Assembly (NCBI GenBank): GCA_031263105.1
Contig: JAISGJ010000173.1
Span: 940 to 64,939 of the forward strand
From: Coriobacteriales bacterium
GTDB taxonomy: Bacteria; Actinomycetota; Coriobacteriia; Coriobacteriales; UBA8131
DNA: 64,000 nucleotides
Direction: 5' to 3'
Below are positions 6,750 through 45,893 of this stretch, piece by piece (within the stretch, counting starts at the first letter, position 1; every line of letters begins with the position of its first letter). Under the pieces are notes generated by a model. It was not told where the DNA came from. It worked only from the letters and a program-made list of their open reading frames with translations, and made no database searches. The position numbers and the translations under genes are program-made.

Positions 6750-6840
6750 AGCAGGGCGGGGCGCCTTCCGGCCGAGTCGACCGCTGCGCGGTCGAGGATC
6801 CCTCGGCAGGCTCGGGATGACAGTGGGGGTGTGAACAGCA
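6750..6840. repeat. half copy (right arm only) of the dispersed inverted-repeat element family
   Basis: ...CCGGCCGAGTCGACCGCTGCGCGGTCGAGGATCCCTCGGCAGGCTCGGGATGACAGTGGGGGTGTGAACAGC is near-identical to the right arms at 10000-10143, 35800-35878 and 45820-45893. Ends about 30 bp upstream of the rlmN ATG. Confidence 0.8.
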
Positions 6841-7067
6841 GCCAAGGAAACGCGAAGAACACTGTACCATGCTTCTCGCATCGCTACGGGGAGCAATCAT
6901 CGTTATAATTGTAAGATGCGGAGGCGGCAGGGCGTCCCGCCCTTGGCGCTTTTGCCTGACGGCAGAACAAAGGAAACGGCCGACCGGGCGGCGGAAGCCG
7001 ACCGGGCGGCATGAGGACGGAACGGACGGCCATGGGGTCTCGAAGCGACGTGGAGGAGGCACAGGGT

Positions 7068-8138
7068 ATGGATAATGCTGGTTGCCCAGGAACTGCGGAC
7101 AGGATGACAAGGCTCCGGGACCTGGCCGCCGCCGTCTCGACGCGCGTCGAGACGGTCGCATTGCTGTATGGGGGCACGAGCGGCGAACGCGAGGTCTCCC
7201 TTGCCAGCGGGAGCGGCGTGCGCGAGGTGCTCGAGAAGGAGGGGTTCTCGGTCTTGTCCATAGACACCGGGGAGGCGGGCTTCGTCGACACGCTTCTTGC
7301 GGGCAGGCCTGACGTCGCCTTTGTCGCCCTGCATGGCAAGGGCGGCGAGGACGGCTGCATCCAGGGCCTGTTGGAGACCTTGGGCATCCCCTATACCCAC
7401 AGCGGCGTCGAGGCAAGCGCACTTGCCATGGACAAGCGGGTCAGCAAGCTCCTCTATCAGGCGGGCGGGCTTCTCACTGCCAGGTTCGCCGTGGCAAGCC
7501 GGGACGAGTTCGGCGACGTTGCCGACACGGACGACGGTCGGGCGTTCGTCATGCATGGAAGCGACAAGGTCGCCGCAGGCATCGATGCCCTTGTCGCCTC
7601 GATCGGGCTGCCCTGCGTGGTAAAGCCCCTCAGCGACGGCTCGTCGCTCGGCGTCTCGATACCCAAGACGCGCGACGGCTTCGTCCAGGCCTTGGACACG
7701 GGCTTCAGGGTGGGCGACACCTTGCTGGTGGAGGAGTTCGTCGCGGGCATCGAGGTGACCGTGCCGGTGCTCGGCAACGGGCGACACGACCTGCTTGCGC
7801 TGCCGGTCATCGAGATCGTGCCGAAAAACGAGTTCTATGACTATGAGTCGAAATATGCGGAAGGAGGCTCGGAGCATGTCATCCCCGCGCGTATCGACGA
7901 AAGGGAGACCGCAGCCTGCAAGCAGGCTGCCATAGAGGCACACGCCGCACTGGGCTGTGCAGGGGTCTCTCGGACGGACATGATCGTCACCAAGGCGGGC
8001 GTCCCCTGCCTCATCGAGACGAACACGGTGCCGGGCATGACGCGCACCTCCCTTATTCCCGAGGACGCGAAGAAAGCCGGCATCACGCCGGGCGAGCTCT
8101 ACCGCCTTTTGCTTCACTTTGCCCTTGAGCGGCGCTGA
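7068..8138 (+). CDS. ddl: D-alanine--D-alanine ligase
   Basis: LLYGGTSGEREVSLASG, HGKGGEDGCIQGLLE and EIEVTVPVLGN are ATP-grasp Ddl signatures. ATG 7068 has SD GGAGGAGG 8 nt upstream; alternatives are 7011 and 7104. Confidence 0.9.
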   Translation: MDNAGCPGTADRMTRLRDLAAAVSTRVETVALLYGGTSGEREVSLASGSGVREVLEKEGFSVLSIDTGEAGFVDTLLAGRPDVAFVALHGKGGEDGCIQGLLETLGIPYTHSGVEASALAMDKRVSKLLYQAGGLLTARFAVASRDEFGDVADTDDGRAFVMHGSDKVAAGIDALVASIGLPCVVKPLSDGSSLGVSIPKTRDGFVQALDTGFRVGDTLLVEEFVAGIEVTVPVLGNGRHDLLALPVIEIVPKNEFYDYESKYAEGGSEHVIPARIDERETAACKQAAIEAHAALGCAGVSRTDMIVTKAGVPCLIETNTVPGMTRTSLIPEDAKKAGITPGELYRLLLHFALERR

Positions 8139-8157
8139 GCGGAGGATTGGGGAAACC

Positions 8158-9024
8158 ATGTACGACATCATCGTAATAGGAGGAGGCCCTGCAGGGCTCT
8201 CTGCTGCGATAACGGCCCGGGTGCGCAACAAGAAGGTTCTGGTCATCTCCAACAGGCTTTCGCAAAACCCCCTTGCAAAGACAAAGGTGGTCAACAATTA
8301 TCCAGGGATTCCGCAGGTGAGCGGCTTGCAGTTGCTCAAACAGATGCTTTCCCACGCACGGGGCCTGGGAGCCGATTTCGTGTTCGAACGCGTGGTGTCC
8401 ATACTGCCGACAGAAGGCCGCTTCGCCGTTGCCACCGGCAGCATGAACAGCGAGGGCCAAAGCATCATATTGGCGACGGGCACCCAGCACGCCAAGGCCT
8501 TCGAGGGGGAGAAGGAGTTTCTTGGCCGAGGAGTGAGCTATTGCGCCACCTGCGACGGCATGCTGTACCGTACGCAGTCCGTCTGCGTCGTAGGGCTTGG
8601 TGCGGACGCGGTCGACGAGGCGAACTTCCTTGGAGAGATCGGCGCCACGGTGCTCTTTCTTGGCAAGAAGCCCCCCGTTGGCCTCGACAGTGGAATCCTG
8701 TTCAAGAACGGCGAGGTCGTCAGGATCAGAGGGGACGAGATGGGTGTCACGGGGCTGGAGTTCAAGGAGAGGGCCACGGGAAGCATCGAGACGGCCCCTT
8801 GCAGCGGCGTGTTCGTTCTCAGGCCGTCCATAGCGCCGGACGCACTGATGGACGGCCTGACGATTGCCGACAGCGGCATTGTGGTCGACGACACGATGTG
8901 CGCCGGCGTCGAGGGCGTCTTTGCGGCGGGGGACTGTCTCGGCCAGCCCTTCCAGGTCTCGAAAGCGGCGGGAGAGGGCCAGCGCGCCTGCTTCGGTGCC
9001 GTGCGGTATCTCGACCAGAGATAA
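8158..9024 (+). CDS. thioredoxin-reductase-like FAD-dependent disulfide oxidoreductase
   Basis: FAD motif YDIIVIGGGPAGLSAA and redox-active CATCDG. The second dinucleotide motif is VVGLGADAVDEA, with no HRRxxxR NADPH signature. Confidence 0.85.
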   Translation: MYDIIVIGGGPAGLSAAITARVRNKKVLVISNRLSQNPLAKTKVVNNYPGIPQVSGLQLLKQMLSHARGLGADFVFERVVSILPTEGRFAVATGSMNSEGQSIILATGTQHAKAFEGEKEFLGRGVSYCATCDGMLYRTQSVCVVGLGADAVDEANFLGEIGATVLFLGKKPPVGLDSGILFKNGEVVRIRGDEMGVTGLEFKERATGSIETAPCSGVFVLRPSIAPDALMDGLTIADSGIVVDDTMCAGVEGVFAAGDCLGQPFQVSKAAGEGQRACFGAVRYLDQR

Positions 9025-9102
9025 GACGACAGCTCGGCGGGCCGTTTTCGGGCGAGGCAACGAGGCAGCGAGGAGGCGAATGCGCCTCAGGCCGGTGCCT
9101 CC

Positions 9103-9687: not shown

Positions 9688-9828
9688 CGCTGCCACCCTT
9701 CTCTAAAATCTACTCTGGCCCCTCAGTCTATCAGCAGTCTATCAGAGCCACGTCCCCGCTCGCAGTTTGTTCTGGCATCGTTACCATGCGTGTTGCCGTG
9801 ACGTTACTGGCCACACCTTCCACGGACA

Positions 9829-10143
9829 CCCCACTGTCATCCCGAGCCCCCCACTGTCATCCCGAGCCCCCCACTGTCATCCCGAGCGAAGCCGAGGGAT
9901 CCTTGGGTCCGAGCGCCCGGAAAACGCACCGCGTTTTCAGCGAGGACGGGCCGACAGGCCCACGGAACGCAAAGCAGCCGACCGCAGGTCGAGGCACCCT
10001 CTAGCCGCAGTCGACCGCTTACGCGGTCGAGGATCCCTCGGCAGGCTCGGGATGACAGTGGGGGCCGGGATGGCAGTGGGGGCCGGGATGACAGTGGGGG
10101 CTCGGGGCGGCGGCGGGGGGGGCTCGGGATGACAGTGGAGGGG
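9829..10143. repeat. full copy of the dispersed inverted-repeat element, with 3-4 fold reiterated termini and one 60-bp hairpin module
   Basis: Left end has CCCCACTGTCATCCCGAGC three times; right end has GGGATGRCAGTGGGGGC three to four times. The interior matches the other copies. Sits 16 bp downstream of the hisG stop. Confidence 0.85.
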
Positions 10144-10158
10144 TGAACAGCAATCCGG

Positions 10159-12068: not shown

Positions 12069-12194
12069 GGCCTTCCTTTCTGCTGCGGCTGTTGTTGCTG
12101 CCGTCTGCTGCTGCTCCCGATACTTTATCACACTACTGTACTAAAGTGCAAGGGGGGAACAACCGGGTCGTCAGGAGGGGGGCTACTGTTCTCA

Positions 12195-12439
12195 CCCCAC
12201 TGTCATTCCGAGCGCAGCGAAGGACCTTCGCTGCGCTCAGGATAAACTCCGCCGAGGAATCTTCGGGTTCGAGCGCCCGGAAAACAGTCCGGCGGACTGT
12301 TTTCAGCGAGAACGGGCCGACAGGCCCACGGGGCGCGAAGCAGCCGACCGCAGGTCGAAGCGCCTCCCGGCCGCAGTCGGGCGCTTCGCGCCCGAGGATT
12401 CCTCGGCTCCGCTCCGCTGCGCTCGGAATGACAGCGGAG
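12195..12439. repeat. full copy of the dispersed inverted-repeat element (one variant hairpin module)
   Basis: Bounded by CCCCACTGTCATTCCGAGC ... GCTCGGAATGACAGCGGAG. The interior is collinear with the copy at 9829-10143. Confidence 0.85.
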
Positions 12440-12441
12440 CA

Positions 12442-12458
12442 GGGGGGGGGGGGGGGGG
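12442..12458. repeat. G17 homopolymer tract
   Basis: 17 consecutive G, abutting the repeat element and 24 bp downstream of the HD-GYP gene stop. Confidence 0.9.
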
Positions 12459-12481
12459 TGCGACCAGTAACCGGCGCTTCC

Positions 12482-13570: not shown

Positions 13571-13727
13571 GTACCTCAGACTTCCTCCCTCGTTTGTCCA
13601 GCAGCCGTTAGCCGCTGCATGCCTCGCGAATGCAACATACTATACCAATATCGGTGTTTAGGAAAGCAGATTCGCATTGAAAACCGAAAACGAAACTGAA
13701 AACCCGCTCCGCTCCTGTTACTCGCAT

Positions 13728-13861
13728 CCTACTGTCATTCCGAGCGAAGCCGAGGAATCTTTGGGCGCACCAGCGCCCAACCGGGCCAGTCGGACACTAC
13801 GTGCCCGAGGATTCTCACGCTGCGCGCCCTTGCGGGCGCTTCGCTCAGAATGACAGTGAGG
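13728..13861. repeat. short copy of the dispersed inverted-repeat element (no 60-bp module)
   Basis: Bounded by CCTACTGTCATTCCGAGCGAAGCCGAGGAATC ... GCTCAGAATGACAGTGAGG. Lies 114 bp downstream of the giant gene stop. Confidence 0.8.
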
Positions 13862-13974
13862 TGTGAGTGACCCGCTCCTTGGCCGTTGCTGACGCTATGG
13901 GCCTTTGCCACATAGGCCAAGGAGCGGTCACCTGTTTGAAGTGCCCTAAAGAGTCCGTTGCGCCGTGGCTGTGG

Positions 13975-16900
13975 TCAAGCACCTTTTTGTACGCACCTCC
14001 GCTTGGAGGGCACCTGTCTGTTTCCCGCAACAACCGTACAGAGGAGAAGGAGCAGCAGCTGGACGGCAAAGGCCGCACCTATAAGAAGCGTCCACTGGTT
14101 GATCCACGACATCGGTTGCGAAAAGTCCTCCAGCCTGAGCTCGGCCACGAGCACGAACACTCCCATGGCAAGAGCGAGGATCCTCAGAGGCGCGCCACGG
14201 CTTTTCGTCCCCGCGTCCCTCTCGCTCCCTTCGTCCGTGTCCGAGGCGGCACCGCGACGGCGAAGGATTCTGAGCAGCGCACGCGCGACGAGCCCTAGGG
14301 AGAGTATGACGGCGACTAGGGTCATGCCAAGATTGAGCAGGCTCCACGTTCCGGTGAGCTGAAGGCTGCCCAGAGGCACGCGGCCCTCAAGGATGTCGAC
14401 GATCGGGTTGCCGGTCGGCGCCTGAAGCGGCACCGGGCCGTCGCTGAGATCAAGTATCTCTGGCAGCGGGGCCAGATCGACCTCCTCCCGCGTCGATGTC
14501 GTCGTGTCCTCGGCGCTGCCCTGTTCAGACAGCGCATCGCGCGACGGGCCCGACGAATCTGTCGATGGGCCCGAGGCCTGGGCAGCGGCAGGCGTCGGGG
14601 CCGTCGGCGTTGCGGAGGCCGGCGACGGCACAGGGCCCGGGCTCACGGGCGTTCCGGGGCCTGCGGGCCCCTCCGGGCCATCCGGCACCTCTGGGCCCGG
14701 CACATCCGGCGTCTCCGGGTCAGGACCTGGCACCTCCGGCGTCTCCGGGTCAGGGTCTGGGCCTTCCGGCACCTCCGGGTCAGGGTCCGGTGTCTCCGGC
14801 ACCTCCGGGTCGGGGTCCGGGCCTTCCGGTGGCTGCGCCGCAGCGCGATGCAGGGTCGCAACACGGCTCGTGGGCACAAAGACAGAGCCCGTCTGGAGGA
14901 CGTGCACCGCCACGATGGCGCCCTCTGTCCAGGTCCCGCTTATCGAGAGGTCGTACACACCGAAGGCGACGTGGGTGAGCGTCCCGCCGTTCACGGCACC
15001 GTCACCGGAGGGGACAAGGGTGGTGTTTCCAGCGGAGAGGCCCATGACATCGCTGTCGAAGGCCAGCCGTATCCGGGTGGAGTCGACGCTTTCCGCCACG
15101 CCGTCGGCGGTTGCGGAGAGAAAGCCCACGCTCGTATCGAGCAGCACATAGAACCCGACGGTCGCAGCCGTCCCTATCCCGACGGAGAAGCCGCCCTGCT
15201 GCCAGAGGAGCCTCTGTGCCTCCCCCTCGCTCAGGACGGCCACGCTCTCCCCTTCTGCTGCAAGCTTCTGCGCCACTGCCGTCCCTGCGACGGCGCCTTC
15301 CTTGCCCGCAAGCACGAGGCAGGCGCCCTCGGCCAGATCGCCCGTTATCGTGACGGTGCGGTCTGCGGCAAGATGGATGCCGTTGTCCGCCGGCCCCACA
15401 CCGACACGGACGGCACCCGAGACGCGCATCTCGCCGGCCGACGACACGCTCACCGCGTGCCCGCCCACGTTTTCTGTGATGTCGCCGCCCGTCATCTCGA
15501 ACAGTCCGTCCATGACGGCCACACCCGCCGCGCTGTCCGCCGCGCCCGCAGAGGTCCGGTTCGCGGCGATCTCGCCGCCCTCCATGCGGAAGGTCGCGCC
15601 GTCCTGTATCTGTACGGCCGCCGTGCCCTCGGCAGACGACAGGTCGAAGAGCCGTCCGCTGTCCATGACGAAGGTCGAGCCTGCGCCGCGCAGGTCGACG
15701 CCCGCAACGCCCGTGGCGTTGTTCGCATGCAGGACGGCATCGTGCAGGACGAGGCTGCCGCCGTTGACGACCACGAGCGGCCGCGTGTTCTGCATCTCGG
15801 CATTGCCGTCGAGGCTCAGGTTGCGCAGCGTGACGGCACCGGCCTCCAGGCGCAACAGCTGGCCCGTGTAGCCTGCAGCACGCGTGAGGGAGACCTCGCC
15901 GACCGCCTCCGGGTACTTGAGGACGTCGACCGCCTTCTCGGAAAGCCCACTGGGAAAGACGATCTCCGCTCCGACCGAAAGCGAGTCCATGACGAAGATG
16001 TTGTAGTAGTCGTAGGAGGAGGTGGCCGCATATTCGAGCGCCCGCTGGATGCTCGCGTAGGGACTCGTGACGATGCCGTTGCCGCTGGAGTTGTCGCCAA
16101 GCTCCAAGGAGACATAGAGGTTGGCCACGGGCACGAGCAGGTAGGACTGCGCCGCAGGGTCGGGGACCACACGGAACTGGCCGGCCTGCCAACGGAAGTA
16201 ATCCGACTCGAGCAACGTGGCCGCAGAGCCCTCCTTGAAGGCGATGAAGGTGTTCTGTGCGGCGCCCGCCTTGCCCTCGAGGTTGATGTTCGAACCGACC
16301 TCGAGGTCGCCCGTCTGCCGAATGGCGGCATCAGGGTCGGCCAGGTACAGGCCGTTGTCGGCATCGTCGGCACCGATGCGCATGCGTCCGGCCAGCTTCA
16401 CGGTGCCGCCCTCGGCATAGATGGCGCTGCCGTAGACGCGCGGCTCGCCCTCGTCGGACGGCGCGGTGTTCCCCACAGAGGTGACATCCGCAAGCTGCAA
16501 GGTCGCATTCCTCTCATAGACGGCCCCGCCGTATGAGGCCGCACCGTTGGCCTCGAGCGTCGTGTCGCTCAGGCTCACCATGGTCGTGTCCACGCCGCCC
16601 GTCGTGTCATTCAGGTACAGGCCGCCGCCACATGCCGCCTCGTTGCCCGCGATACGGACGCCCGCGAGATCAAGCCTCACGTTTGCGCCGGTCGCCGTGT
16701 TGTTCAGATACAGTGCGCCGCCGTCGCCCGTCGCACGGTTGCCCTCCATGCGCCCGCCGTTTACCGAGACCGCCACCAAGGCGTTTGCGGCAGCGGACAC
16801 ACTGAGGGCACCGCCACATGCCGCACGGTTGTTCACGAGGCTGACGTTCGTGAGCCACAGTCGTGCCGTCTGCCAGGCTGCGACGCTTCGGATGGCGATG

Positions 16901-19900
16901 AGAGAGGCGGTGTTCAGGGCATTCTCGCTCCTGTTGCCGTCCAGCGTCAGCCCCTCGACACGCAGGGTGGCGCCCGCCACGCCCGTCTCGACCGTCAAGA
17001 AGGCGCCGTCGAAGGCATCCGTGCGCGTGAGAAGGGGCGTCGGGAAGGCCTCGGCCCAAGGCTTCAGCGCGATGTCGCGGTTCGGGCCGACCGTGGCAGT
17101 GGTCGCGATGGCGAGGTCGTCCATGACGTAGACCGTGACGGGCAGGCCCGCCGGTGCCAGGGCGCATGCGGCCGCGATGGTTCGCAGAGGATGCTCGACC
17201 GTGCCCCGGGCACCGTCGTCTCCCGTTGCAGACACGAAGAAGACGGTACGGCCTGCGAGGACGTACTGATTGTTGGCGGCATCCGCCGTTATGCAAAAGG
17301 AGCTGTTGTTTTGATAGTGGTAGAGGTCCGCCTCTGCGTCGCTCGGCGCATCGCCTGCGGTCTTGGTCGCGACGAGCACTCCGAAGCCCTCGCCTGCCTT
17401 GCTCGCGATGTTCACACGGGCACCGGTGCCCAGGTCGCCGTTTTGGACGATCGCAGAGCTCGCGGGCAGGACGATGCCGTTGTCCGTGTCGCTCGTGCCG
17501 ATGCGCACCGAACCGGACAGGGAAAGCCTTTCGTATTCGGCCTGACCCGAGAACGACACCGCCGTGCCATTGCCGGATATCGTGCCTCCGAGCAGGTTGG
17601 CGGATGCGGTATTGCGGTTGTACGAGTTGCCTTGGAGGTAGATGCCGCCGCCGCTCGTCGCCGTGTTGCCGCGTATCTCGCCGCCCTCCACGGTGATGAG
17701 GGCCTGACCGTTGCTTGAGGTCAAGGCTGTGCCGATGGCACCGCCGTTCAGCCCATGGTTGTCGATGAGCCTGCCGCTTCTCATGGTGAAGGCGGCCTTG
17801 GTGTTGTATGCCGCTCCGACAAGCACCAAGGGTTGATTGTTGGTGTCGTAGACGTCCTTTTTGCCGTCGAGCGTCACGCCGTCGAGCGTGAGGGTCGAAT
17901 TGTGGCTCACGGCGAGCAGGGCGAATCCGCTGCCCGCACGGCGTATCGTTACCTCGCCGTCGGGATCGTCGTCCAAGCCGTCTTCGTCAAGGGCCTCGGG
18001 GTCAGGGGCAAGCGTCACGTTCTTCGCGGGCACCGTCGAGGTCCCCAGCGTCGCCGTGGCGGTGGCATCGAGGTCGTCCATGACGTAGACGGTCACGGGC
18101 GTGGTCGACCAGGCGCGCTCGAAAGCGCACGCTATCGTTGCCAATGGGTTCTCCCGCGAGCCGTCGCCCGCCGTATCGTTGCCTGTACTGCCCGATACAT
18201 AGAAGTCGGTGCGGCCTGTCAGGACGTATTGCCCGCTCTCTTCCGCGCCCGGTGCCACGTACAGGGCGTTGTTGTCCTGATAGTAGTAGTGCGCGGCCTC
18301 TGGGACGTTTATCTCGTTCCCTGCGGTCTTGGTCGCTATGACCGTCCCGAAGTCCGCGCTTGCCTTGCTCGCGATATTCACGCGAGCACTGTCGGCGAGG
18401 TCGCCGTTCTGGGTGACGGTATAGTTCGCAGGAAGGACGATGCCGTTGTCGGCATTGCTCGTGCCCACCTGCACCGAGCCCGAGACGGAGACCTTCTCGT
18501 AATTTGGGCCCATGCCCAAGAAGTCCAGCGCCGTGCCGTTGCCCGTTATCGTGCCGCCCGACAGGTTGACGGAGATCGCGCCGGAATTAATGTAATTGCG
18601 TACATAGATGCCGCCGCCGATGCCGGAAGTTGCGCTATTGTCTGCAATCTCACCGGCAGTGAGATTCAGGGCAGGATTCCCATAATAGTCGTAAAGGTAC
18701 ACGCCGCCGCCGCGCAGTGCAGTGTTTTCCTTGAGCGCGACGCCGGAAAGATTCAGGGCAGGCGCAGAGGATTCGGTGCTGATATAGATGCCGCCGCCGC
18801 CGCTACCGGCGTTAGAGCCGCCTGGGGCCACAAGACCGCCAGCCTTGTTATGCGAGATGTCTCCGCCGGAAAGATTCAACGCCATTGTTCCTCTGGAGCG
18901 TACATACAGGGCACCGCCGCTATCGACTGCGGTATTGTTCTCAATTTCGCCGCCTGTGAGGTTCAGGGTCACCGGTCCCTGATAGTTTTCGAGATAGATG
19001 CCGCCGCCGGCATTCGCGGTATTATCGGAAATCTCACCACCCTCTATAGTGATGACGACCTGGCGGGAGCTGTTGTCGGCATACGTATAGATGGCGCCGC
19101 CGTTTGCACCGTCGTTGCTGACGAGCCGACCGCTTTTCATGATAAAGGTCGTGGTGTTGTTGACCGCAGGGCTGGCGTCGACCAAGGGCTTGTTGTTGTC
19201 GGGGTAGATGTTCCTGGCGCCGTCAAGCGTCACCCCGTCAAGCGTGAGGGTCGCACCGCCCTGAACGGCTATCATGGCAAACCCGTCGGCTGCGCGCGTC
19301 ACGGTGACCTCGCCGTCCGGGTCATCTTCAAAGCCGTCCGCATCCAGCGCCTCGGGGTCGGGGGCGAGCGTCACATTCTTGCCCGCAGTCAGCGTCGCCA
19401 TGGAGCTGATGTCCATGTCGTCCATGACGTAGACGGTCACCGGCGCGGTCGTCCAGGCGCGCGTGAAAGCGTGGGAGAGCGTCTCGAAGGGCTTCGCCCG
19501 AGAGCCGTCGCCCGTCACGTCATTGCCTCCGCTCGATACATAGAAGTCCAGACTGCCCGTCAGGATATAGCGGTCGTTATCCGCGTCGGGAACCACGCGC
19601 AGGGAGTTGTTGGATTGGTAGTGGTAGCAGAGCGCTTCATCGGCATCGGGCTTCTCGCCGTCCACTTTGTTTGCCAGGACGACACCGTAGTCCTCGTCCC
19701 CCTTGCTTTTGATGTTGACGTGCGCGTCTGTGCCCAGATCGCCGTCCTGGGTGACGGTGTAGCCGACGGGCAGGACGATGCCGTTGTCAGTATTGTCTTC
19801 GCCGACGCGCATCGAGTCCGAGATACGGAGTTGGTTGTAGGGTGCGGACGCCGCACCTGAACCGGAGAAGGCCACCGCCTCCCCGTTACCGCCTATCGTA

Positions 19901-22900
19901 CCGCCCATGAGGCGTACGATGTTGAGCGCATATGCGGAACCTCCGGCGATATAGATGCCGCCACCGCTCGCCGCGCTGTTGTCCTCTATCGCAACATCGC
20001 GCTGGCAGAGCTCGGATTTGACAGGATTGGAAGCGTAGTTGCTGCCTACTCCGACGTAGATGCCGCCGCCGTTGCCCGCCGCCGTGTTGTTTGCAATCAG
20101 GCCTTTGTCAAGGTTTATGGCAGCCGTCGACGTGTTGGAGCTATTGACGTATATCCCGCCGCCGCCGTAGGTGGGGCTGCCGGTGCCGGTCGTGGTGTTG
20201 TAGGTTATATCACTGCCATCAAGGGTCAGGATCGCCGTTGCCCGGTCATTGTTGACGCTGACCCCGCCGCCGCTGTTAATGGCCGTATTGCCGGTGATCT
20301 CGCCGCCGTTAAGGTTCAGGCTAAACGTCCCTCCTCCGTAACTATAGTTCGTGCCGTAGCCGATACCACCGCCGTTGGTGGCCGTATTGCCGCTTATCTC
20401 TCCATCGTTTATGGTGACGACGACCGAACTGGAGGAGCCACTGGTCTCCGCAAGGACGGCGCCGCCTGAGTTGCCTCCCTTGTTGTTTGTAAGCTTGCCG
20501 CTTTCCATCGTAAAGGTGGCCGGCGAGCCGTTCGTTGCGATCCATATCAGCGGCTGGTTGTTGTTGGTGTAGGTGTTCTTTTTGCCGTCGAGCGTCACGC
20601 CGTCGAGCGTGAAGGTCGCACCGCTGCCAACCGTGATCATCGCAAAGCCAGTCGCCGCCCGGCTCACGGTCACGCCGTCCGGGTCGTAAGCCGGGTCATC
20701 CACATCCAGGGCCGCAGGGTCGGGAACGAGCCTCACGCTCTTGTTCGCAGCCAGCGTCGCCGTGGAGTCGGCATCGATGTCGTCCATGACATAGACGGTC
20801 ACCGGAGTGACGGCGGAAGCAACCGCAAAGGCCTTCGCAATTGTCAGGAAGGGCTCCTCCCTGCTGCCAAAGCCGGTCTCGTCACTGCCCGTGCTCTTTA
20901 CGTAGAGTTCCGAGACGGCGCTCAAGATATAGGTGTTGTTGTCCATGTCTTCCACTATGTGAACCAGGGGCGATTCGAGCCACAGATAGAGCGCCGCCTC
21001 CCCGGCGCTGACGGGCCCTCCGTCGGACTTCTCTGCGATGACCGTGCCCGCATCCGCGCTCATCTTGCCCTCGACGTTTATGCGCGCGTCGGTGTCAAGG
21101 TCGTCCTTTTGGGCGATGGTCAGGTTTGTGCGCAGGTAGATGCCGTTGTCCGTATCGTCCGCCCCGATATGAGGGCTGCCCTTTACGCGCAGCGTGCCGC
21201 CGTGATGGTCGATGGCTGCGCCGAGGGTGGCGGTGTTTCCCGTGATGAGCCCGCCGCTTATCTCGGCTGTTCCATTAAGGTAGATGGCACCGCCCTCCGT
21301 GGCGTGGTTGTTTGCGAGCACGCCGCTTTCGAGGACGAAGGTCCCGCCGACCCTGACAAGCGATTTGGTGTTCGCCGCAAAGTCCGCATCATCGCCGGCG
21401 CCGTCGAGCGTCACGTCGCGCCAAGTGAGTTTTCCGTCTGCCTGCACCAGGTTGATGTCATTCGCCGTGCGCGTGACGGTGATGTCTGCGGGGTCGCCGC
21501 CCGCATCCGGGTCGGCCTGCACCGTGATGGTCTTGCCGCTTATGACGGTGGCGGGCGCGGGAGCGACCGTGTCGTCCATGACGTAGACGTCCGAGGATGC
21601 GCCCGGCGCGGCTACGTCAAAGGCACGCGCGAGCGTCTTGAAGGGATAGGCCTTCGTGCCGTCGCCGCCTCTGTCGTCGCCGCTGCCGCTCACGTAGAGG
21701 GCGCTCGGGCGCTGCAGGACGTACTGCCTCGTGCTCTGCGGGACGATGCGCAGGTCGCCGGGGCCCTGCCAGTGGTAATGCGCCGCCTCTGGATCGTTGA
21801 CATTCACGCCGTTCGCCGTCTTGCTTGCGATGAGGGAGTTGGTTGCGATGTCTGCCCGGTCCTCGATGACGATGAAGGCGCCGCCGCCCAGGTCGCCGTC
21901 ATGGGAGATGGTCATGCCGGTATTCAGATAGACGCCGTTGTCCGTGGCGCTCGCGCCGATGTGCGGCGAGCCTTTCACGCGCAGGACAGAGGATGTGCCG
22001 CTGTGGTAGATGGCCGCGCCGATCATGGCGGTGTTTCCCGTTATGAGCCCGCCGCTTATCTCGGCTACAGCGTTGTCGCCCAGCGCTATGGCACCGCCGT
22101 TCGTCGCCTTGTTGCCCTCTATCGTCGTGCCGGTGAGGGACAGCGAGGAACTCTGGTAGCGGTTCGAGTAAAGGTAGACGGCACCGCCGTTTGCTGCCTC
22201 GTTGTCGTGTATGCTGCCGCCCCTCAGCTCGATCGTCACAAGGGGAACCGAGCCCCAACTGGTATAGCCGTCCCCCCGGATGGCGCCGCCGTCCTTTCCG
22301 TGGTTGTTTCGTATCTCGCCGTCTTCCAAAATAAAGGCAGCGGTGCCTGTGGCGTTCCCGGCATTGACGTACACCGCCGGAAACTCGTTCTCGGGGCAGG
22401 CTGCCTTTGCGCCGTCGAGGATGAGGCCGTCAAGCGTGAGTACGCCGCCGTTTTGTACTTCGAGCAGCGCAAAGCCCTCCGCCGTGCGCGTGGCGGTGAC
22501 GTCCGCCGGGGCCCCGGGGTCGTCGTCAGGCCTCAAGACGATGTTCTTGCCCGCTGTCACCACGGCGGTCACGGAAACGTCTATATCGTCCATCACATAG
22601 ACCGTGCTGCAATCATCGGGGTTGCCAGGATCGTCTGGAAGCGCCATCCTGAAGGCCTTCGCCAACGTCGCAAAGGGATGGGCGCGGCTTCCGTCGCCGC
22701 TCACGTCGTCGCCGTGTGCACTGACGTAGAGCCCGGCCCCGCCCTGCAGGACGTACTGCTGCGACGTACCGGAGGGCACGATGCCCACGGATGCCGGGCC
22801 CTGCCATACGTAGTGGGCCGCCTCTTCGGGAGAAACGGTTGCGCCGTCGGCCTTGTCCGCGATGACGCTCCCCGCGCTCGAGCCGGGCTTGTCCTCTATG

Positions 22901-33503: not shown

Positions 33504-33607
33504 CAGGAACGACCCGTCGTCGTTCCCGTCGTCTTACTAAGGGCGACCCGTCGTCGCTCCTATGATCCTGTATAAGGGCGACCCGCCGTCGCTCTTATCG
33601 TCCTGCG
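33504..33607. repeat. three tandem ~34-35-bp repeats (core CGACCCGYCGTCGYTC)
   Basis: Copies at 33504-33537, 33538-33572 and 33573-33607. Copies 2 and 3 are 29/35 identical. They lie between the UPF0104 stop and the REC-HD-GYP start. Confidence 0.75.
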
Positions 33608-33612
33608 GGACA

Positions 33613-34785: not shown

Positions 34786-34789
34786 GACG

Positions 34790-35590
34790 CTAGGAGGACG
34801 GGCCGAAGTCGATGACCCCGAGGCCGACGAGCAGGCCGACGAAGACCGCCTGGAGGACGACCAGGGCGACGAGTATCAGGATGAACGCCTGTCTGCTGAT
34901 GCGCTCGCTGCGGGGCGGGGCGCCTTTGGGCCGATCGGCGTCGTCGGAGACGGTGTCGTCGGGGGCAGGGGCGTCGTCGGCGTCGTCCGAAGCGGGAGCG
35001 GCATCGGGAAGCGGGGACGGAGTTTCGTCCTCGTCCTCGTCCTCGTCCCCGTCCTCGTCCTCGTCCTCGTCCTCGTCCCCGTCAGGGGTTTCGTCCTCAT
35101 CAGGGGTTTCATCCGGCATCTCGTCCTCGTCCGGCACCTCGCCTTCGTCCGGCGCCTCGCCTTCGTCCGGCGCCTCGTCCGGCATCTCGTCGGGGGCCTC
35201 GTCGGGAACCTTGTCAGGGGCCTCGTCCGGCACCTCGTCGGAAGGCGGGGGCAAGGCCGTCTTCGGGCTGGCCCCGAGTATGGGCAGGGATGCAGGGACG
35301 GTGATCACCCGAGGGGGCAGAGGCACCACCTCAGGCGCGGGTTCGGGCGCGGGCGCGGACCCGGGAGCTGGAGGGGGAACAGGGGCAGCCTCGGGCTCGG
35401 GCGCAGGTTCGGGGTCGGATGCCGGCCCGGGCGCCGGCTCGAAGGTAAGGCCCGCCAGGAACTCGAAGATGTTGGATTGGGCAGGGACGCCCGTCCCCTC
35501 GGACACACCGGACGGGGAGGCATCCTGCCCGAGCGGGCCGGGGGCGGGACCGTCGCGTCCCGCTTGGTCATCGGCTTTCGGCTTCGCCAT
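34790..35590 (-). CDS. acidic Pro/Asp/Glu low-complexity protein with a single C-terminal TM helix (tail-anchored)
   Basis: SD GAGGGA 4 nt before the ATG. Contains repeats such as DEVPDEAPDKVPDEAPDEMPDEAPDEGEAPDEGEVPDEDE and a (DE)n run, with the C-terminal helix FILILVALVVLQAVFVGLLVGLGV. No recognisable family. Confidence 0.6.
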   Translation of the reverse strand: MAKPKADDQAGRDGPAPGPLGQDASPSGVSEGTGVPAQSNIFEFLAGLTFEPAPGPASDPEPAPEPEAAPVPPPAPGSAPAPEPAPEVVPLPPRVITVPASLPILGASPKTALPPPSDEVPDEAPDKVPDEAPDEMPDEAPDEGEAPDEGEVPDEDEMPDETPDEDETPDGDEDEDEDEDGDEDEDEDETPSPLPDAAPASDDADDAPAPDDTVSDDADRPKGAPPRSERISRQAFILILVALVVLQAVFVGLLVGLGVIDFGPSS

Positions 35591-35711
35591 ACGATCCCTC
35601 TTCTGAAGCGCCGTCGGGGTCTTTCCGTTACTGCAACGGCTTACATTCTACTCTACCTTGCTTCCCAAGGGAGACGATGGGCAGTCATCGTCTCCCGCAG
35701 GAGAAGGAAAG

Positions 35712-35878
35712 CCGTTACTGTTCACTCCCCCTATTGTCATTCCGAGCCTCGCGAGGAATCTTCGGCTGCGAAGCAGCCGAGCGCGGGCCGAAGCGCTTTC
35801 TGGCCGCAGTCGACCGCTTGCGCGGTCGAGGATCCCTCGGCAGGCTCGGGATGACAATAGGGGGAGTGAACAGTAACG
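35712..35878. repeat. copy of the dispersed inverted-repeat element with perfect 36-bp termini and AAAG flanking duplication
   Basis: CCGTTACTGTTCACTCCCCCTATTGTCATTCCGAGC ... GCTCGGGATGACAATAGGGGGAGTGAACAGTAACGG. AAAG is present on both flanks. Lies inside the 3' end of the ribF ORF. Confidence 0.85.
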
Positions 35879-36882
35879 GAAAGCCGGGCCGTCTGCCCGA
35901 TATCGGCCTGCACGGTGCGCTTGAGCTCGTCGATGCCGGAGAACGCCTGCATGGGACGGAGGTACTCGACAAAGGAGACCTTGAGCCTGCGCCCATAGAG
36001 GTCCCCCTCGAAGTCGAGCAGGTGCGCCTCGATGGTCGCGGACGCCCCCGCGAAGGTCGCGGGCACGCCGACGGATATGGCGGCACGGTAGCGCTCGTCG
36101 CCCAGTTCGGCCACGCCGGCGTACACGCCGTCCGCCGGCCGCACAAGCCTCTCCTCGAGCTCGAGGTTCGCCGTGGGGAAGCCGAGACGCCTCCCCATGT
36201 TGCGGCCCGCCGTCACCCGTGCCCACAGGAAGTGCGGACGCGTGAGCAGCTGGTTGGCAAGTGCCAGCTCGCCGGTCTCCAGGGCGTCACGGATGCGCGT
36301 CGAGGTCACCGGCAGCCCCTCGTCGGTAAGCAGCCTGTGGGAGAACACCGCGCAGTCGCGGTCGGCGCCCCAGAGCCTCAGGTCGTCGACCGTGCCCCTC
36401 GCCCGATGGCCGAAGCGGAAGTCCGCCCCCACGTGTATGCCGCGCGGGATGCCGTGGGCGGCGATGACCGCGTTGAGGAAGTCGAGCGGGGCCTTCGACG
36501 CAAGCAGGGCATCGAAGGGGACGACGAGGACGGCGTCCACCCCGCTTTCCGCGAGCATCCCGATGCGGTCCTCGTTGACGAGGAGCTTGCGCTGGGCGGC
36601 CGCATCGAGGAAGAACTCGTCCGGATCCCTGTCGAAGGTGATGGCGACGGCAGCCGCCCCTACACGGCGTGCCTGCGCGACCGCCTCGCCGAGAAGGAAG
36701 CGGTGCCCCTCGTGGACGCCGTCGAAGACGCCTATCGCACAGACGATTGCGCCGAGGGCCGAGTCGGCGGCAAGGGGGATGACCGGTGCGGCCTGCCCTG
36801 GCCCTCGGCCAGCGGCACCCTCGTCGGCGAGCGCCTTGCGGAAAGGGCGGTCGTTGTTATCTGGCACGCTCGTCTTCCTCAT
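35737..36882 (-). CDS. ribF: bifunctional riboflavin kinase / FMN adenylyltransferase RibF (last ~46 codons encoded by the repeat element)
   Basis: GVFDGVHEGHRFLL, the FPTANL kinase motif and a C-terminal FSGIDELKRTVQADI. ATG 36882 overlaps the truB end (alternative GTG 36867). No stop codon until 35737, inside the element. Confidence 0.88.
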   Translation of the reverse strand: MRKTSVPDNNDRPFRKALADEGAAGRGPGQAAPVIPLAADSALGAIVCAIGVFDGVHEGHRFLLGEAVAQARRVGAAAVAITFDRDPDEFFLDAAAQRKLLVNEDRIGMLAESGVDAVLVVPFDALLASKAPLDFLNAVIAAHGIPRGIHVGADFRFGHRARGTVDDLRLWGADRDCAVFSHRLLTDEGLPVTSTRIRDALETGELALANQLLTRPHFLWARVTAGRNMGRRLGFPTANLELEERLVRPADGVYAGVAELGDERYRAAISVGVPATFAGASATIEAHLLDFEGDLYGRRLKVSFVEYLRPMQAFSGIDELKRTVQADIGQTARLSVTVHSPYCHPEPAEGSSTAQAVDCGQKALRPALGCFAAEDSSRGSE

Positions 36883-37735: not shown

Positions 37736-37745
37736 GCTGCCAAGC

Positions 37746-39115: not shown

Positions 39116-39144
39116 TGCCGCCCGCTCCCCTGCTCTCTCTGTCG

Positions 39145-41937: not shown

Positions 41938-41948
41938 ATTCCCAGCTC

Positions 41949-42248: not shown

Positions 42249-42251
42249 GCG

Positions 42252-43598
42252 TCAGGCCCCGCTCTCCTCGGGCGCAGGCGCCTCGGGGGGGACATCGGAG
42301 GGCGCCTCGGAGGCACGCGCCTCCTCGGCCTCCTGAGAGGCACGGACGGCGTCCGAGAGCTCCGTGACGTCGTCGGTCGTCTCCCCCAGCGTGGCGTTCT
42401 CGTGCAGGCGGCAGAAACGTGAGTGGGGCTGCGCATGGTTGCGGCAACGGATGCCGTCGGGCGAGACGTACTCGCAGCGCCCGCCCTCGGGCTCGGACTC
42501 GTGCTCGTCGTCATCGAAGAGCGTCGTCACCGCCGACGGCATATCGCCCATGAGCGACGAGCTCTTGATGTCGATATGCCAGCCGGTCAGGCGGGCTGCC
42601 AGGCGGGCGTTCTGCCCCTCCTTGCCGATGGCAAGCGAGAGCTGGTCGTCCGGCACGATGACGGTGGCATAGTGCGTCCCCTCGTCCACGATGACGTTGT
42701 TCACCTTGGCGGGCGAGAGCGCGTTCGCCACGTACACGCTCGGGTTGTCGTCGAACTGTATGACGTCGACGCGCTCGTTGCGCAGCTCCTCGACCACCAT
42801 GCGCACGCGCGAGCCCTTGGGGCCCACGCAGGCGCCGACAGGGTCGAGGTTGCCCTCGCGGGAGGACACCGCGATCTTGGAGCGCGCCCCCGCCTCGCGG
42901 GCGATGGACTTGATCTCGACGATGCCGTCGTATATCTCCGGCACCTCTATCTCGAAGAGCCGGCGGATGAGGTCGGGATGGGTGCGGCTGACGACGATCG
43001 ACGGACGGGTGTTCTCGTTGCGGCTGCCGGGGTCGACGAAGTTGGGGTCGCGGACCTCGATGATGAGCGACTTGAGGCGCTGGTTGTGACGGTAATGTTC
43101 GTTGGCGGGCTTCTCGTTGCGCTCGCCTCCGTAGCGCTTCACGTCGAAGTGCGGCAGCTCGGCCTCCACGCCGTCGCGTATCTTGATGATGGTGAAGTCC
43201 GGCGTGGACTGCAGGACCGTGCCGGTGACGAGCTCGCCCTTGCGGTCCGAGTACTCGGTGAAGATGGCCTGGCGCCCGGCATCGCGCACGATGGACATGA
43301 TGACGTTCTTGGCGTTCTGCGCGGCGATGCGGCTCACGTCGCGCGGCGTGACGTCGCGCTCCTCGAAGCTCGCGTACTCGCCCGTCTCCTCGTCGGGCTC
43401 CCCGACGGGCACCAGCTCGTAGACGTAGATGCTGCCCGTCTCGCGGTTGATGGTGACGCGCGCGTCCCACTCGAGCTTGAGGATGCCCTCGTAGCTCCTC
43501 GCAAGCGACTGCTCCAGACGTTCGAGCAGATAGATCTCGTCGATGTTCTTCTCCGCTGCCAAAGCCTCCAGGGCTGCCATTAACTCAGACGACATCAT
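42252..43598 (-). CDS. nusA: transcription termination/antitermination factor NusA with a ~100-aa Cys/His-containing acidic C-terminal extension
   Basis: N-domain, S1 and KH1/KH2 ([47 protein letters not shown]). ATG 43598 is preceded by GGAAGGA. Confidence 0.93.
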
Positions 43599-44091
43599 CG
43601 GTTCCTTCCTGTGACCGGCTCTTCCTGTTGTCAGGGCCGACGCGCCCCAACAGGTGCGCCTTCCTGATGCTCTCATACGGTATGGCCCGCTCCTCGCCGT
43701 CGACAAGGAGCAGGACGGCGGCCTCGGTGACGCCGACGAGGGTGCCCGTCCAGCTGCGGCGTCCCTCGAGGGGGCCGGTCGCAAGCCGCGCCTCCTCGCC
43801 GACGAAGCGCGCGAAATGCGCGGGCGTGCGCAACGGGCGGTCGATGCCGGGCGAGGAGACCTCCAAGGTGTAGGCCCCGAAGTACGGCTCGTTGGCCTCG
43901 ACGGCCGCGTCGACCCAAGGGTTCGCCCCGGCAAGCTCGTCGATGCCGCAGCCGCCCTCGCGGTCGAGGAGGACGCGGACGATGCGCGAGGAACCCGCCG
44001 AGGCAAGCTCCACGTCGACCAGCTCGAAGCCGTTGTCGGCCGCCGCCGCATCCAGCGCCGCTATGAGCCTCTGGCGCTTCTCGCCCTTCAC
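43585..44091 (-). CDS. rimP: ribosome maturation factor RimP
   Basis: GFELVDVEL...VRVLLD...YTLEVSSPGIDRPLR. GTG 44091 is preceded by GAAGGAG 4 nt upstream. The longer track ORF is rejected. Confidence 0.85.
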   Translation of the reverse strand: MKGEKRQRLIAALDAAAADNGFELVDVELASAGSSRIVRVLLDREGGCGIDELAGANPWVDAAVEANEPYFGAYTLEVSSPGIDRPLRTPAHFARFVGEEARLATGPLEGRRSWTGTLVGVTEAAVLLLVDGEERAIPYESIRKAHLLGRVGPDNRKSRSQEGTDDVV

Positions 44092-44326
44092 ACCGCTCCT
44101 TCTTCCTCGGGGAGGCACCGGGCCACCTAACAAAAGAAAGCGGGACAAAGCCCACTTCCTCACCGACCCGATCATCGTTGAAAACCGCAAGAAAACCTGC
44201 ACCTGTTCCCATGGAAGAGGCGCAGAGGCATTTATACCATAAAAGCCCTGACCTGAACAGCCCCGCCGTCGACACGGGCGCACAGGGCGCGCGGGGAGCG
44301 CGGCGTGAGGCATTGCCGGCCCCGCA

Positions 44327-44784
44327 CCCCACTGTCATTCCGAGCCCTTCGGCTGCGCTCAGGGCAAACTCCGGGGCGCAAGCCCCGCAGCCGAGGAATC
44401 CTTGGGTCCGAGCGCCCGGAAAACGCACCGCGTTCTCAGCGAGGACGGGCCGACAGGCCCACGGAACACGAGCGCCCGGAAAACGCACCGCGTTCTCAGC
44501 GAGGACGGGCCGACAGGCCCACGGAACCCGAGCGCCCGGAAAACGCACCGCGTTCTCAGCGAGGACGGGCCGACAGGCCCACGGGACCCGAGCGCCCGGA
44601 AAACGCACCGCGTTCTCAGCGAGGACGGGCCGACAGGCCCACGGAACGCGAAGCAGCCAGCCATAGGTTGAGGGATCCTCCAACCTATGGCTGGCTGCTC
44701 TGCAGCCAGAGATTCCTCGGCTGCGGGGCTTGCGCCCCGGAGTTTACCCTGAGCGCAGCCGAAGGGCTCGGAATGACAGTGTGG
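44327..44784. repeat. largest copy (458 bp) of the dispersed inverted-repeat element
   Basis: Bounded by CCCCACTGTCATTCCGAGC ... GCTCGGAATGACAGTGTGG. Contains the 4 x 60-bp array and a near-perfect central palindrome around GGATCC. Lies 27 bp downstream of the focA stop. Confidence 0.85.
44410..44649. repeat. 4 x 60-bp perfect-phase tandem array of the hairpin module
   Basis: Unit GAGCGCCCGGAAAACGCACCGCGTTCTCAGCGAGGACGGGCCGACAGGCCCACGGAACNC starts at 44410, 44470, 44530 and 44590. Units differ only in their last few nt. Confidence 0.95.
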
Positions 44785-44810
44785 ACGGCGGCCCTGTGCG
44801 GCGGGCGCCC

Positions 44811-45677
44811 CTACTTCTCCGCCTTGGGCTTGTGGAAGGCGATCCAGTACAGGACGCCGACGAGGATGATGCCGCCGATCATGTTGCCGACGGTCACCAT
44901 GCCGAGGTTGTAGGCTATGGCGCCGATGTCGATCTTGTCGGCGGCCTCCAAGGCCTTCTCCCCCACCGCGCTGCCCGAGAGCTTGAGCACGTAGCCCATC
45001 GGGAGGAAGAACATGTTGGCCACGCTGTGCTCCGCCCCTGCGGCCACGAACGCGGTGATCGGGAAGAGGATCGCGAAGAACTTGTCTACGAACGTGCGGC
45101 CCGCAAAGGACATCCACACGGCGAGGCAGACGAGGAAGTTGCAGAGGATCGCCTTGAACAGCAGGGTGAGCGGCGGAATGGTCGCCTTCATCGCCGCCAG
45201 GTTTATGAAGGCGTCGCCCACCGCCCCGGGCGTGGGGCCCATGGCGCCGGTGTTCGCCAGGAACACGACCGCGACCGCGATGAGCGAGCCTATCAGGTTG
45301 GTGACCCAGATGATCACCAGGTTCTTGATATAGGAGCCCCACGGGACCTTGCCGCTCAGGACCGCAGCGATTATGAGGTTGTTGCCCGTGAACAGCTCCG
45401 CCCCCGCCAGCAGCACCAGAATGAGGCCGATGCAGAACCCCAGGCCTCCCAGCAGGCGCTGGGCGATAAAGGGCATGTTGGCCGAGTCCCCCAGGACCAG
45501 TCCGAGCATCATCCCGCCCATGCCGATGAATATGCCCGCAAAGATGCCTAAGGGAATGGCCCGTATCATCGGCATGTTCGCCTTGGCGACGCCGATGGCC
45601 TCGAGCTTCTGCTCGGTCTCTGCGGGCACCAGCACGTCCGGCTTGATGCTTGCAACCGTCTTGTCATCCATACTCAT
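44811..45677 (-). CDS. focA: formate/nitrite transporter family channel (FocA-like)
   Basis: Six-TM FNT signature including LLAGAELFTGNNL and GAEHSVANMF. ATG 45677 is preceded by GGAGGA. Adjacent to the hydrogenlyase genes. Confidence 0.88.
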   Translation of the reverse strand: MSMDDKTVASIKPDVLVPAETEQKLEAIGVAKANMPMIRAIPLGIFAGIFIGMGGMMLGLVLGDSANMPFIAQRLLGGLGFCIGLILVLLAGAELFTGNNLIIAAVLSGKVPWGSYIKNLVIIWVTNLIGSLIAVAVVFLANTGAMGPTPGAVGDAFINLAAMKATIPPLTLLFKAILCNFLVCLAVWMSFAGRTFVDKFFAILFPITAFVAAGAEHSVANMFFLPMGYVLKLSGSAVGEKALEAADKIDIGAIAYNLGMVTVGNMIGGIILVGVLYWIAFHKPKAEK

Positions 45678-45757
45678 ATCATCCTCCAAAAACGTAGTCA
45701 TTGATAGTATCCACAATCATTGCACATGCGCCACCCCACAGCCCGTTGCAGCTCACA

Positions 45758-45893
45758 CCCCCACTGTCATTCCGAGCCCTGCCGAGGAATCTTCGACTGC
45801 GGAGCAGCCGACCGCAGGCCGAGGCACCTTCCGGCCGCAGTCGACCGCTGACGCGGTCGAGGATCCCTCGGCAGGCTCGGGATGACAGTGGGG
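45758..45893. repeat. short copy of the dispersed inverted-repeat element
   Basis: Bounded by CCCCCACTGTCATTCCGAGC ... GCTCGGGATGACAGTGGGG. Lies 43 bp downstream of the hycI stop. Confidence 0.85.

Follow-up and report, generated by a model that had tools for sequence, protein, structure and literature searches.

Seven copies of a small non-coding mobile element carrying REP-type hairpins inside its ends in a Coriobacteriales genome

The closest described counterparts of the hairpins considered here are the CGTC-tagged repetitive extragenic palindromic (REP) sequences, a superfamily defined by Di Nocera, De Gregorio and Rocco (2013, BMC Genomics 14:522; PMC3733652). Each of these REPs carries an unpaired 5' tetranucleotide, which is TGTC rather than CGTC in many repeats and CCTC in a variant, followed by a stem in which positions 1 and 2 are almost always complementary A and T; in the published families the stem is perfect and 8-9 bp long, the loop measures 4-5 nt and the tail is approximately CCA. 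They occur mainly as inverted dimers, often heterodimers, some of them embedded in longer palindromes, and were reported from five phyla, downstream of open reading frames (ORFs) in gaps of tandem or convergent gene pairs. CGTC repeats were not found to flank any tyrosine transposase gene, and no enzyme that mobilises them is known (PMC3733652). REPs in general are described as species-specific sequences that reportedly increase the stability of mRNA and bring about termination (PMC6006769). The present analysis concerns seven related repeats in 64,000 nt of DNA from a Coriobacteriales bacterium (GenBank assembly GCA_031263105.1, contig JAISGJ010000173.1, positions 940 to 64,939 of the forward strand; hereafter the window), which an earlier sequence-only reading had likened to bacterial interspersed mosaic elements (BIMEs) and REPs or to miniature inverted-repeat transposable elements (MITEs). 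That likeness was supported by terminal inverted repeats, by 8-bp duplications of the target and by CGTC/TGTC REP traits in the hairpins near the ends of the repeats, and the window element is a MITE that carries a TGTC-tagged REP dimer inside its ends.

The seven repeats are real; they are ordinary mobile DNA elements, small and without coding capacity, sited just behind genes. A search of both strands of the 64 kb with the terminus CCCCACTGTCATYCCGAGC, allowing up to two mismatches, gave 17 matches where none is expected and none was found in dinucleotide-preserving shuffles (0/100), and all 17 were confined to the seven intervals in which the sequence-only reading had placed copies with common termini. 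A shorter 14-mer core of the terminus, CTGTCATYCYGAGC, and the sequence GCCGAGGRATCY, which that reading had called a linker, were found in the same seven places and nowhere else in the window. Its account of the interiors also stood. Of the 60-nt module said to be present 0, 1 or 4 times, there is a single example in 9829-10143, a single variant in 12195-12439 and a tandem run of four at 44408-44647. The core AGCAGCCGACCGCAGG...GCAGTCGACCGC was present in the copies at 9829, 12195 and 45758 and, as a variant, in that at 35712; only the right part of the core was present at 6750, the apex differed in the copy at 44327 and the interior in the copy at 13728. The copies, of 155-490 nt, have reading frames that yield repeat-derived peptides alone, and among the translations were HCHPEP..., TVIPS... 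and LGMTVG, of the kind mentioned earlier as spurious peptides that recur in many phyla. The anatomy was revised on two points. The limits first drawn for the copies were too short, an outer inverted repeat adding approximately 15-25 nt at each end (revised ends in Table 1), and GCCGAGGRATCY proved not to be a spacer, being the 3' half of a hairpin, hereafter the arm, of which the terminus forms the remainder.

Direct evidence of transposition came from the outer inverted repeat and from target-site duplications, both of which the earlier reading had missed. Direct repeats of 8 bp immediately flank the GTTRC... ends and were 8/8, 8/8 and 7/8 identical in three of the six full copies and 5/8 identical in a fourth, as compared with probabilities of 6.5e-5 for 8/8 and 1.2e-3 for at least 7/8 identity among random position pairs in the window. 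These repeats are target-site duplications. Further, the ribF frame (35737-35885, minus strand) crosses the copy at 35714-35877, such that 45 residues encoded by the element (VTVHSPYCHPEPAEGSS...) take the place of the last six ancestral ones, FSCGRR; excision in silico of 35714-35877 together with one duplicate restored a short RibF end, ...TARLSFSCGRR*. The truB-ribF region reads as a single 599-codon ORF. Because of the 8-bp target-site duplications and the insertion into the end of ribF, the copies are regarded as MITE-like transposition products. They have terminal inverted repeats, no coding capacity (no ORF with a family match inside any copy) and a duplication of fixed length, which are the features of a MITE.

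Contigs of related organisms ended at these repeats. Thus, a Joint Genome Institute (JGI) contig of a close relative (L253, end 6782) stops exactly at the right boundary of 35714-35877, and a Logan contig (L254, end 1317) stops inside the copy downstream of hycI (45745-45906). A further contig from a relative (L132, end 3484) stops, by our own estimate, approximately 95 nt short of an element boundary. Copies of the element appear to fragment short-read assemblies in this lineage. A search for empty sites found none, the relatives on record all having contigs that stop at the element, and no homologues of hycI, focA or the gene for an HD-GYP protein were found within 90% clusters. The outer repeat was absent from every locus among the matches listed for the genome and metagenome scans described below.

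In structure, the element consists of three layers. The outermost is the inverted repeat, GTTRCTGTTCAC-N-CCCCCAC at both ends; within it lies an inverted pair of 29-nt arm hairpins with TGTC tags facing outward; and within these lies a variable, mosaic core of small hairpins that includes the 60-nt module. The core modules are prone to tandem amplification. Folds of whole elements ranged from -125.7 to -369 kcal/mol, with z scores of -7 to -22 against shuffles. Arm loops were enlarged by nested palindromes in the left arm of 12182-12471 and in both arms of 44327-44784, the latter copy also showing weak outer pairing to approximately 44311-44800. Homopolymer G tracts of 17 nt (12443-12459, in the right outer repeat) and 8 nt (10115-10122, at the right end) were noted in two copies and may be slippage products or sites prone to assembly error.

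Table 1. Element copies, arm hairpins, modules and target-site duplications in the window
Feature	Position	Strand	Remarks
Internally deleted copy	6746-6842	+	right half intact: core remnant, right arm, outer repeat ...GTGAACAGCAGC; left end uncertain
Right arm of deleted copy	6796-6823	-	covariance model
Full copy, 352 nt	9803-10154	+	one 60-nt module; flanking 8-mers GCCGTGAC / CCGGTCAC, 5/8 identical; order: outer repeat, three half-arm units, left arm, module, core, right arm with mirrored half-arm units, outer repeat
Three tandem 20-nt units CCCCACTGTCATCCCGAGCC (arm 5' half)	9829-9887	+	imperfect mirror at 10045-10140
Left arm hairpin, CCC/GGG type, GAA loop	9874-9902	+	covariance model, 44.6 bits
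Right arm hairpin	10031-10058	-	covariance model, 34.7 bits
60-nt double-hairpin module, single	9909-9968	+	repeat families D1, D5
Full copy, 290 nt	12182-12471	+	variant 60-nt module; no recognisable target-site duplication (2/8)
Right arm, three-pentamer loop GCAGC-GGAGC-GGAGC	12396-12434	-	39/39 nt identical to arm of a Verrucomicrobiota metagenome-assembled genome (L019)
Full copy, 155 nt	13717-13871	.	interior unrelated, orientation undefinable
Target-site duplication CCGCTCCT	13709-13716 (left), 13872-13879 (right)	.	8/8 identical
Full copy, 164 nt	35714-35877	+	7 codons before original ribF stop; outer repeat perfect for 24 nt beyond arm
Target-site duplication GGAAAGCC	35706-35713 (left), 35878-35885 (right)	.	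8/8 identical
Largest copy	44327-44784	+	four tandem 60-nt modules 44408-44647; different apex palindrome 44647-44705
Full copy, 162 nt, hycI-focA gap	45745-45906	+	left arm 45764-45792, T-A type; right arm 45861-45888, C-G type
Target-site duplication CACAGCCC (left) / CACAGCCT (right)	45737-45744 (left), 45907-45914 (right)	.	7/8 identical

The arm is an independent conserved hairpin with strong covariation, and a covariance model of it found no arms in the 64 kb outside the element copies. Its consensus, YTGTC-AT-NNN-GA-GC-GNA-GC(Y)-GA-N'N'N'-AT-CT, folds into five Watson-Crick pairs, a tandem G.A/A.G step, two G-C pairs, a GNA triloop, an optional one-base bulge and a CT tail. Among 102 arms whose pairing was not forced by the search pattern, N'N'N' was fully complementary to NNN in 86, compared with a permutation mean of 17 and maximum of 30, and the complementary arms comprised ten triplet types (TCC, CCC, TTC, CCT, GTT, TCT, GCT, CTC, GCC and GTC). 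Metagenome arms, for which only the 5' half had been specified, paired Y=C with GGG 58 times and Y=T with GGA 34 times, with one exception; overall, the variable pairs were fully Watson-Crick in 231 of 245 distinct arms. In an alignment of 36 sequences, 97% of cells paired and two-sided changes were present in 44 cells as opposed to 13.9 in shuffles. The A-T and T-A pairs at the foot of the stem were found in 36/36 sequences at both positions, the tandem GA...GA step was invariant, and the G-C pairs were nearly so (outer 36/36, inner 29/36). Mismatches of the G.T and A.C kinds, compared as a guide to which strand folds, numbered 5 and 3, too few to tell.

Conservation of the arm ends abruptly, 2 nt 5' of the tag on one side and two bases past the stem on the other. 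The GTC of the tag is invariant and is preceded by T or C; the search pattern imposed this T in part, but unforced arms showed CGTC as well as TGTC. Any base can occupy the centre of the triloop (A 47, C 18, T 15 and G 10 among 7-nt loops), and longer loops arise through added GNAGC pentamers or through nested hairpins of as much as approximately 90 nt. The GC-GAA-GC form of the apex is the very stable DNA mini-hairpin d(GCGAAGC). Within an element the triplets of the left and right arms are often different, yet each arm is still self-complementary, as in 45745-45906 (T-A left, C-G right), and therefore selection or repair acts within the arm and not just between arms. Half-arm units of the form [CCCCAC]TGTCATYCCGAGC[N], 19-20 nt in length, occur two to four times before a complete arm, each ending at the loop apex. 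Since such tandems recur in unrelated lineages beyond the window (L147, L148, L161, L203, L207, L224 and L232), they belong to the hairpin rather than to any single genome.

The arm was found far beyond the window, in agreement with the earlier suggestion that peptides translated from such termini recur in many phyla. A scan of one genome per GTDB species with the pattern TGTCATYCCGAGC-N(0-30)-GCCGAGGRATC, for which we estimate approximately 0.5 chance matches, returned at least 118 loci with the arm, assigned from record titles to 16 phyla among the matches listed; with Actinomycetota, added by the window, the arm is present in at least 17. The matches listed comprised Acidobacteriota (31), Chloroflexota (15), Bacillota (14), Pseudomonadota (13), Verrucomicrobiota/Lentisphaerota (11), Bacteroidota (8), Patescibacteria (6), Planctomycetota (4), Armatimonadota (4), Nitrospirota (2), Bdellovibrionota (2), one each from Deinococcota, Cyanobacteriota, Hydrogenedentota, Rokubacteria and Dormibacterota, and three unclassified loci. 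Isolates were represented by Hymenobacter sp. 102 (a complete genome), Pontibacter burrus and Methylophaga sp. OBS4. When window copies were compared by BLAST with the listed genome loci, the arm alone matched, over 27-39 nt (best 39/39 in a Verrucomicrobiota metagenome-assembled genome), and no match was obtained in these loci for the outer repeat, the 60-nt module or the core. Similarly, a metagenome scan with a 19-mer gave at least 120 loci from unrelated lineages with the arm alone in common, and no further copy of the window's own element family was seen among those listed. In IMG/VR, two arm patterns matched 23 and at least 120 contigs, at least 140 in all (L255-L356), including some with two or three arms (L257, L266 and L353, among others); these contigs may be phage genomes or prophage/host flanks. 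No arm match was found in PLSDB plasmids, and literature searches by the exact arm DNA or RNA sequence gave nothing relevant. The unusual part of the finding is the near-invariance of this one covarying hairpin across phyla.

Some arms outside the window sit in tandem arrays of identical units, with periods of 80 nt in L100 (4362-4952) and 329 nt in L014 (6246-7142; Dehalococcoidia chromosome OZ244885.1). Arm-containing modules thus amplify in tandem, like the 60-nt module of the window. Both arrays were considered as candidate clustered regularly interspaced short palindromic repeats (CRISPR) and rejected, the units being identical with no distinct spacers. Acido-Lenti-1 RNA (RF01687), a separate dispersed hairpin repeat, was noted in the arm-bearing Acidobacteriaceae loci L067 (2738-2937) and L020 (345-390).

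In other genomes, arms mostly formed inverted pairs, 56-170 nt in length, whose tags face outward. There were 43 such pairs by the full-arm pattern and 109 distinct pairs by a looser half-arm pattern, many of them of differing triplet type, and in the 109 pairs the inverted repeat ended 0-4 nt outside GTCAT. By a crude longest-ORF gene caller, intergenic arms lay in 76 tandem, 39 convergent and 11 divergent contexts, and single arms were sense to the flanking transcription in 20 cases and antisense in 21. No enrichment of particular genes was found around arms. Thus, 150 arm-flanking ORFs matched 167 Pfam families, of which the most frequent, GNAT, had three members and none had more, and there was no transposase among the 25 most frequent families. 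A GIY-YIG nuclease domain was present in two of the 150 (L014-L107), too few for an association.

Compared with the CGTC-tagged REP superfamily, the arm has the same kind of tag, A-T/T-A stem foot, short loop and short unpaired 3' tail, and the same arrangement in inverted dimers or heterodimers at downstream intergenic sites with no linked transposase. The stem of the former is perfect, with a 4-5 nt loop and a CCA tail, as opposed to the G.A/A.G step and CT tail of the arm, and five phyla were reported for the former as opposed to the 16 among our matches listed plus Actinomycetota for the latter. Because the arm departs from the published stem and loop geometry and its sequence is absent from the text and supplements of PMC3733652, it is classed here as a putative unlisted family of the CGTC/TGTC-tagged superfamily, distinct from CGTC-1 to CGTC-4. 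The E. coli REP/BIME elements and REP doublets forming hairpins (REPINs) resemble the window elements in that tagged hairpins occur in inverted pairs, also foldable as one long hairpin, in mosaics with other motifs at the 3' ends of genes. They differ in that the window copies have an outer inverted repeat and 8-bp target duplications. Moreover, the tag of REPINs and their REP-associated tyrosine transposase (RAYT) systems is GTAG or GTGG as opposed to YGTC in the arm, and no gene for RAYT was seen near arms in the 8-kb pieces around matches or in the 64-kb window. The species specificity ascribed to REPs (PMC6006769) also contrasts with an arm that is almost invariant across phyla. The Correia elements of Neisseria, or Neisseria miniature insertion sequences (NEMIS), are MITEs that are likewise small and non-coding, with terminal inverted repeats, duplications of fixed length and positions near genes; they sometimes alter gene ends and are co-transcribed as long hairpins. 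Unlike bacterial MITEs, the window element has REP-type hairpins just inside its ends, and no parent insertion sequence (IS) was found for it among the scanned window ORFs; its GTTRC... ends and 8-bp duplication were not assignable to any IS family.

Taken together, we regard the seven repeats, with a probability of roughly 0.7, as copies of a selfish, non-autonomous MITE of BIME-like mosaic build that is mobilised in trans. A DDE-type transposase encoded elsewhere in the genome would have supplied the insertion activity, in the reaction that duplicated 8 bp of the target and that, in one case, rewrote the end of ribF. The position of copies close behind stop codons would be explained by the loss of insertions that disturbed promoters or ribosome-binding sites. 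Once in place, an element would be co-transcribed with the upstream minus-strand genes, and its stable hairpin could block 3'-to-5' exonucleases in the mRNA or be a site of processing, by analogy with E. coli REP/BIME and Neisseria Correia elements. Any such effect on the 3' end of the upstream mRNA is probably a by-product of a selfish element and not its purpose.

Several observations weigh against transposition of this kind. No target-site duplication was seen at 12182-12471 or 44327-44784, and identity was only 5/8 at 9803-10154. Neither a transposase nor a parent IS with matching ends was found among the scanned ORFs of the window. Around the 109 arm pairs of other phyla, there was no outer repeat and no target duplication above control; these dimers therefore probably spread by a different route. 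The common direction of the six orientable copies is not predicted by plain DDE insertion, and the proposed co-transcription and exonuclease barrier are drawn from analogy.

The orientation of the copies and their closeness to stop codons bear on the alternative that the repeat is a selected, orientation-specific RNA element, i.e., a stabiliser in the 3' untranslated region, an RNase III site, a terminator or a source of small RNA. ORF and protein analysis confirmed the gene context described earlier, in which copies lie between minus-strand genes, 3' of stop codons, with one overlap of ribF. Thus, the distances from element to stop codon were 4 nt for hisG, 10 nt for the HD-GYP gene, 103 nt for a giant gene, approximately 10-26 nt for focA and 29 nt for hycI, and one copy lay within the final 7 codons of ribF. 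Of the six full copies, five were within 30 nt of the upstream stop codon or overlapped it, and each was nearer to that stop than to the next start. The claim that all seven copies share one orientation held for six, since the interiors at 6750, 9829, 12195, 35712, 44327 and 45758 align mutually only in the same orientation, co-oriented with the minus-strand genes, but not for the copy at 13728, whose unrelated interior leaves orientation undefinable. These positions, the very stable folds and the stabilising and terminating effects reported for REPs (PMC6006769) favour an RNA element. However, the argument that a strict orientation bias points to a transcript function was not supported in the form given. 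The number of copies is six (6/6, two-sided binomial p approximately 0.03), all in one co-directional gene array; arms occur in both orientations within every copy, and single arms elsewhere were divided 20 to 21. GC skew, calculated for replication direction, was flat. The suggested terminator also failed to appear: no terminator-like site and no T-rich tail was found at any copy, and counts equalled those expected from shuffles. Searches of Rfam 15 at gathering score gave no family for the arm or the element in the window and 18 related loci, and in E-value mode two copies matched only generic long-hairpin models (microRNA precursors and VA RNA), far below threshold; a scan for tRNA and tmRNA also found nothing. 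Unlike a conserved RNA, the copies vary widely in their interiors (0-4 modules, different apices, one unrelated core), and the target-site duplications and damaged ribF end indicate insertion events. Uniform orientation and stop proximity fit purifying selection against promoter damage and, equally, a mild benefit of a 3' hairpin, so that they do not discriminate between these; they are also compatible with a strand-specific insertion mechanism. The analogy with REP elements makes a role in the transcript plausible, and we consider a selected RNA element rather unlikely as the explanation of the copies.

A broader speculation, which we hold to be unlikely, is that the TGTC hairpin with its tandem G.A step is a near-universal bacterial nucleic-acid signal read by trans-acting machinery. 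The distribution of the arm over at least 17 phyla, including bacteria of the candidate phyla radiation, gut Firmicutes and Coriobacteriales, and over viral contigs would then reflect the signal, and the machinery might be an orphan HUH/Y1 enzyme without flanking repeats or a conserved host enzyme whose substrate is single-stranded DNA or RNA. The hairpin would have been captured by the Coriobacteriales MITE, and the half-arm tandems might be the footprint of the machinery.

Also unlikely, in our view, is that the arm pair itself is the mobile unit, as in REPINs, with a single-copy HUH/Y1 tyrosine transposase of the RAYT type or of an orphan class cutting the single-stranded hairpin at the TGTC tag at replication forks, and that the outer repeat and 8-bp repeats are incidental. 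The arm is REP-like, with an unpaired tetranucleotide 5' of an irregular hairpin that has a conserved G.A/A.G step and a GNA triloop; the inverted dimers of other phyla lack target-site duplications, the half-arm tandems end at the loop apex, the GC-GAA-GC apex has the form of the stable d(GCGAAGC) mini-hairpin, and uniform orientation in a co-directional array fits strand-specific, replication-linked insertion. HUH transposition, however, makes no exact 8-bp target duplications, and three window copies have such duplications at the ends of the outer repeat. Further, no ORF with an HUH...Y motif was found by a crude motif scan of approximately 0.9 Mb around the 118 genome loci listed, no Y1_Tnp domain was present in the 150 flanking ORFs, the tag is not GTAG, and no tyrosine transposase gene flanked by CGTC repeats has been described (PMC3733652). 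Assembly artefact or chance similarity, which a metagenome-assembled contig with repeats that invite chimeric joins might suggest, can be set aside given seven copies with different flanks and interiors and their own target-site duplications, the absence of matches in shuffles, the presence of the arm in isolate genomes and the independent JGI and Logan assemblies that reach the same boundaries.

The genes next to the copies are all on the minus strand and comprise rlmN, an unknown gene, a GNAT acetyltransferase gene, hisG, hisZ, the HD-GYP gene and a 4,919-codon gene, followed by ribF, nrnA, rbfA, infB, nusA, rimP, focA and hycI and then by a formate hydrogenlyase operon. The formate hydrogenlyase set (46394-60240, minus strand), with HycI, small and large hydrogenase subunits, antiporter-like subunits and an FdhF-type molybdopterin enzyme, forms a tightly packed block free of elements, while all seven copies lie in the loosely packed region from 6.7 to 46 kb. 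The 4,919-codon gene is a single ORF (13975-28734, minus strand) with many internal repeats of approximately 1.0-1.4 kb period (families D2 and D4-D19); its product is probably a surface protein, giant and repetitive. At 35006-35234, within an ORF at 34790-35590 (minus strand), a GTCCTC/GTCCGG repeat with a period of 12 nt encodes an Asp/Glu-rich acidic tract; the protein has no Pfam match.

For annotation, these repeats should be masked, given the spurious ORFs, the altered C-terminus of RibF and the broken short-read assemblies that go with them. The arms belong to a little-studied repeat family, and their sequence of approximately 29 nt is almost unchanged across at least 17 phyla. With ten covarying stem types and near-invariance elsewhere, the 29-nt arm is a defined substrate for pull-downs and cleavage assays. 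The clean 8-bp target duplications indicate that at least one lineage moves such hairpins by an ordinary cut-and-paste or copy-and-paste system. Together, the invariance of the arm and these clean duplications could make the question of which enzyme mobilises the CGTC REPs (PMC3733652) a testable one.

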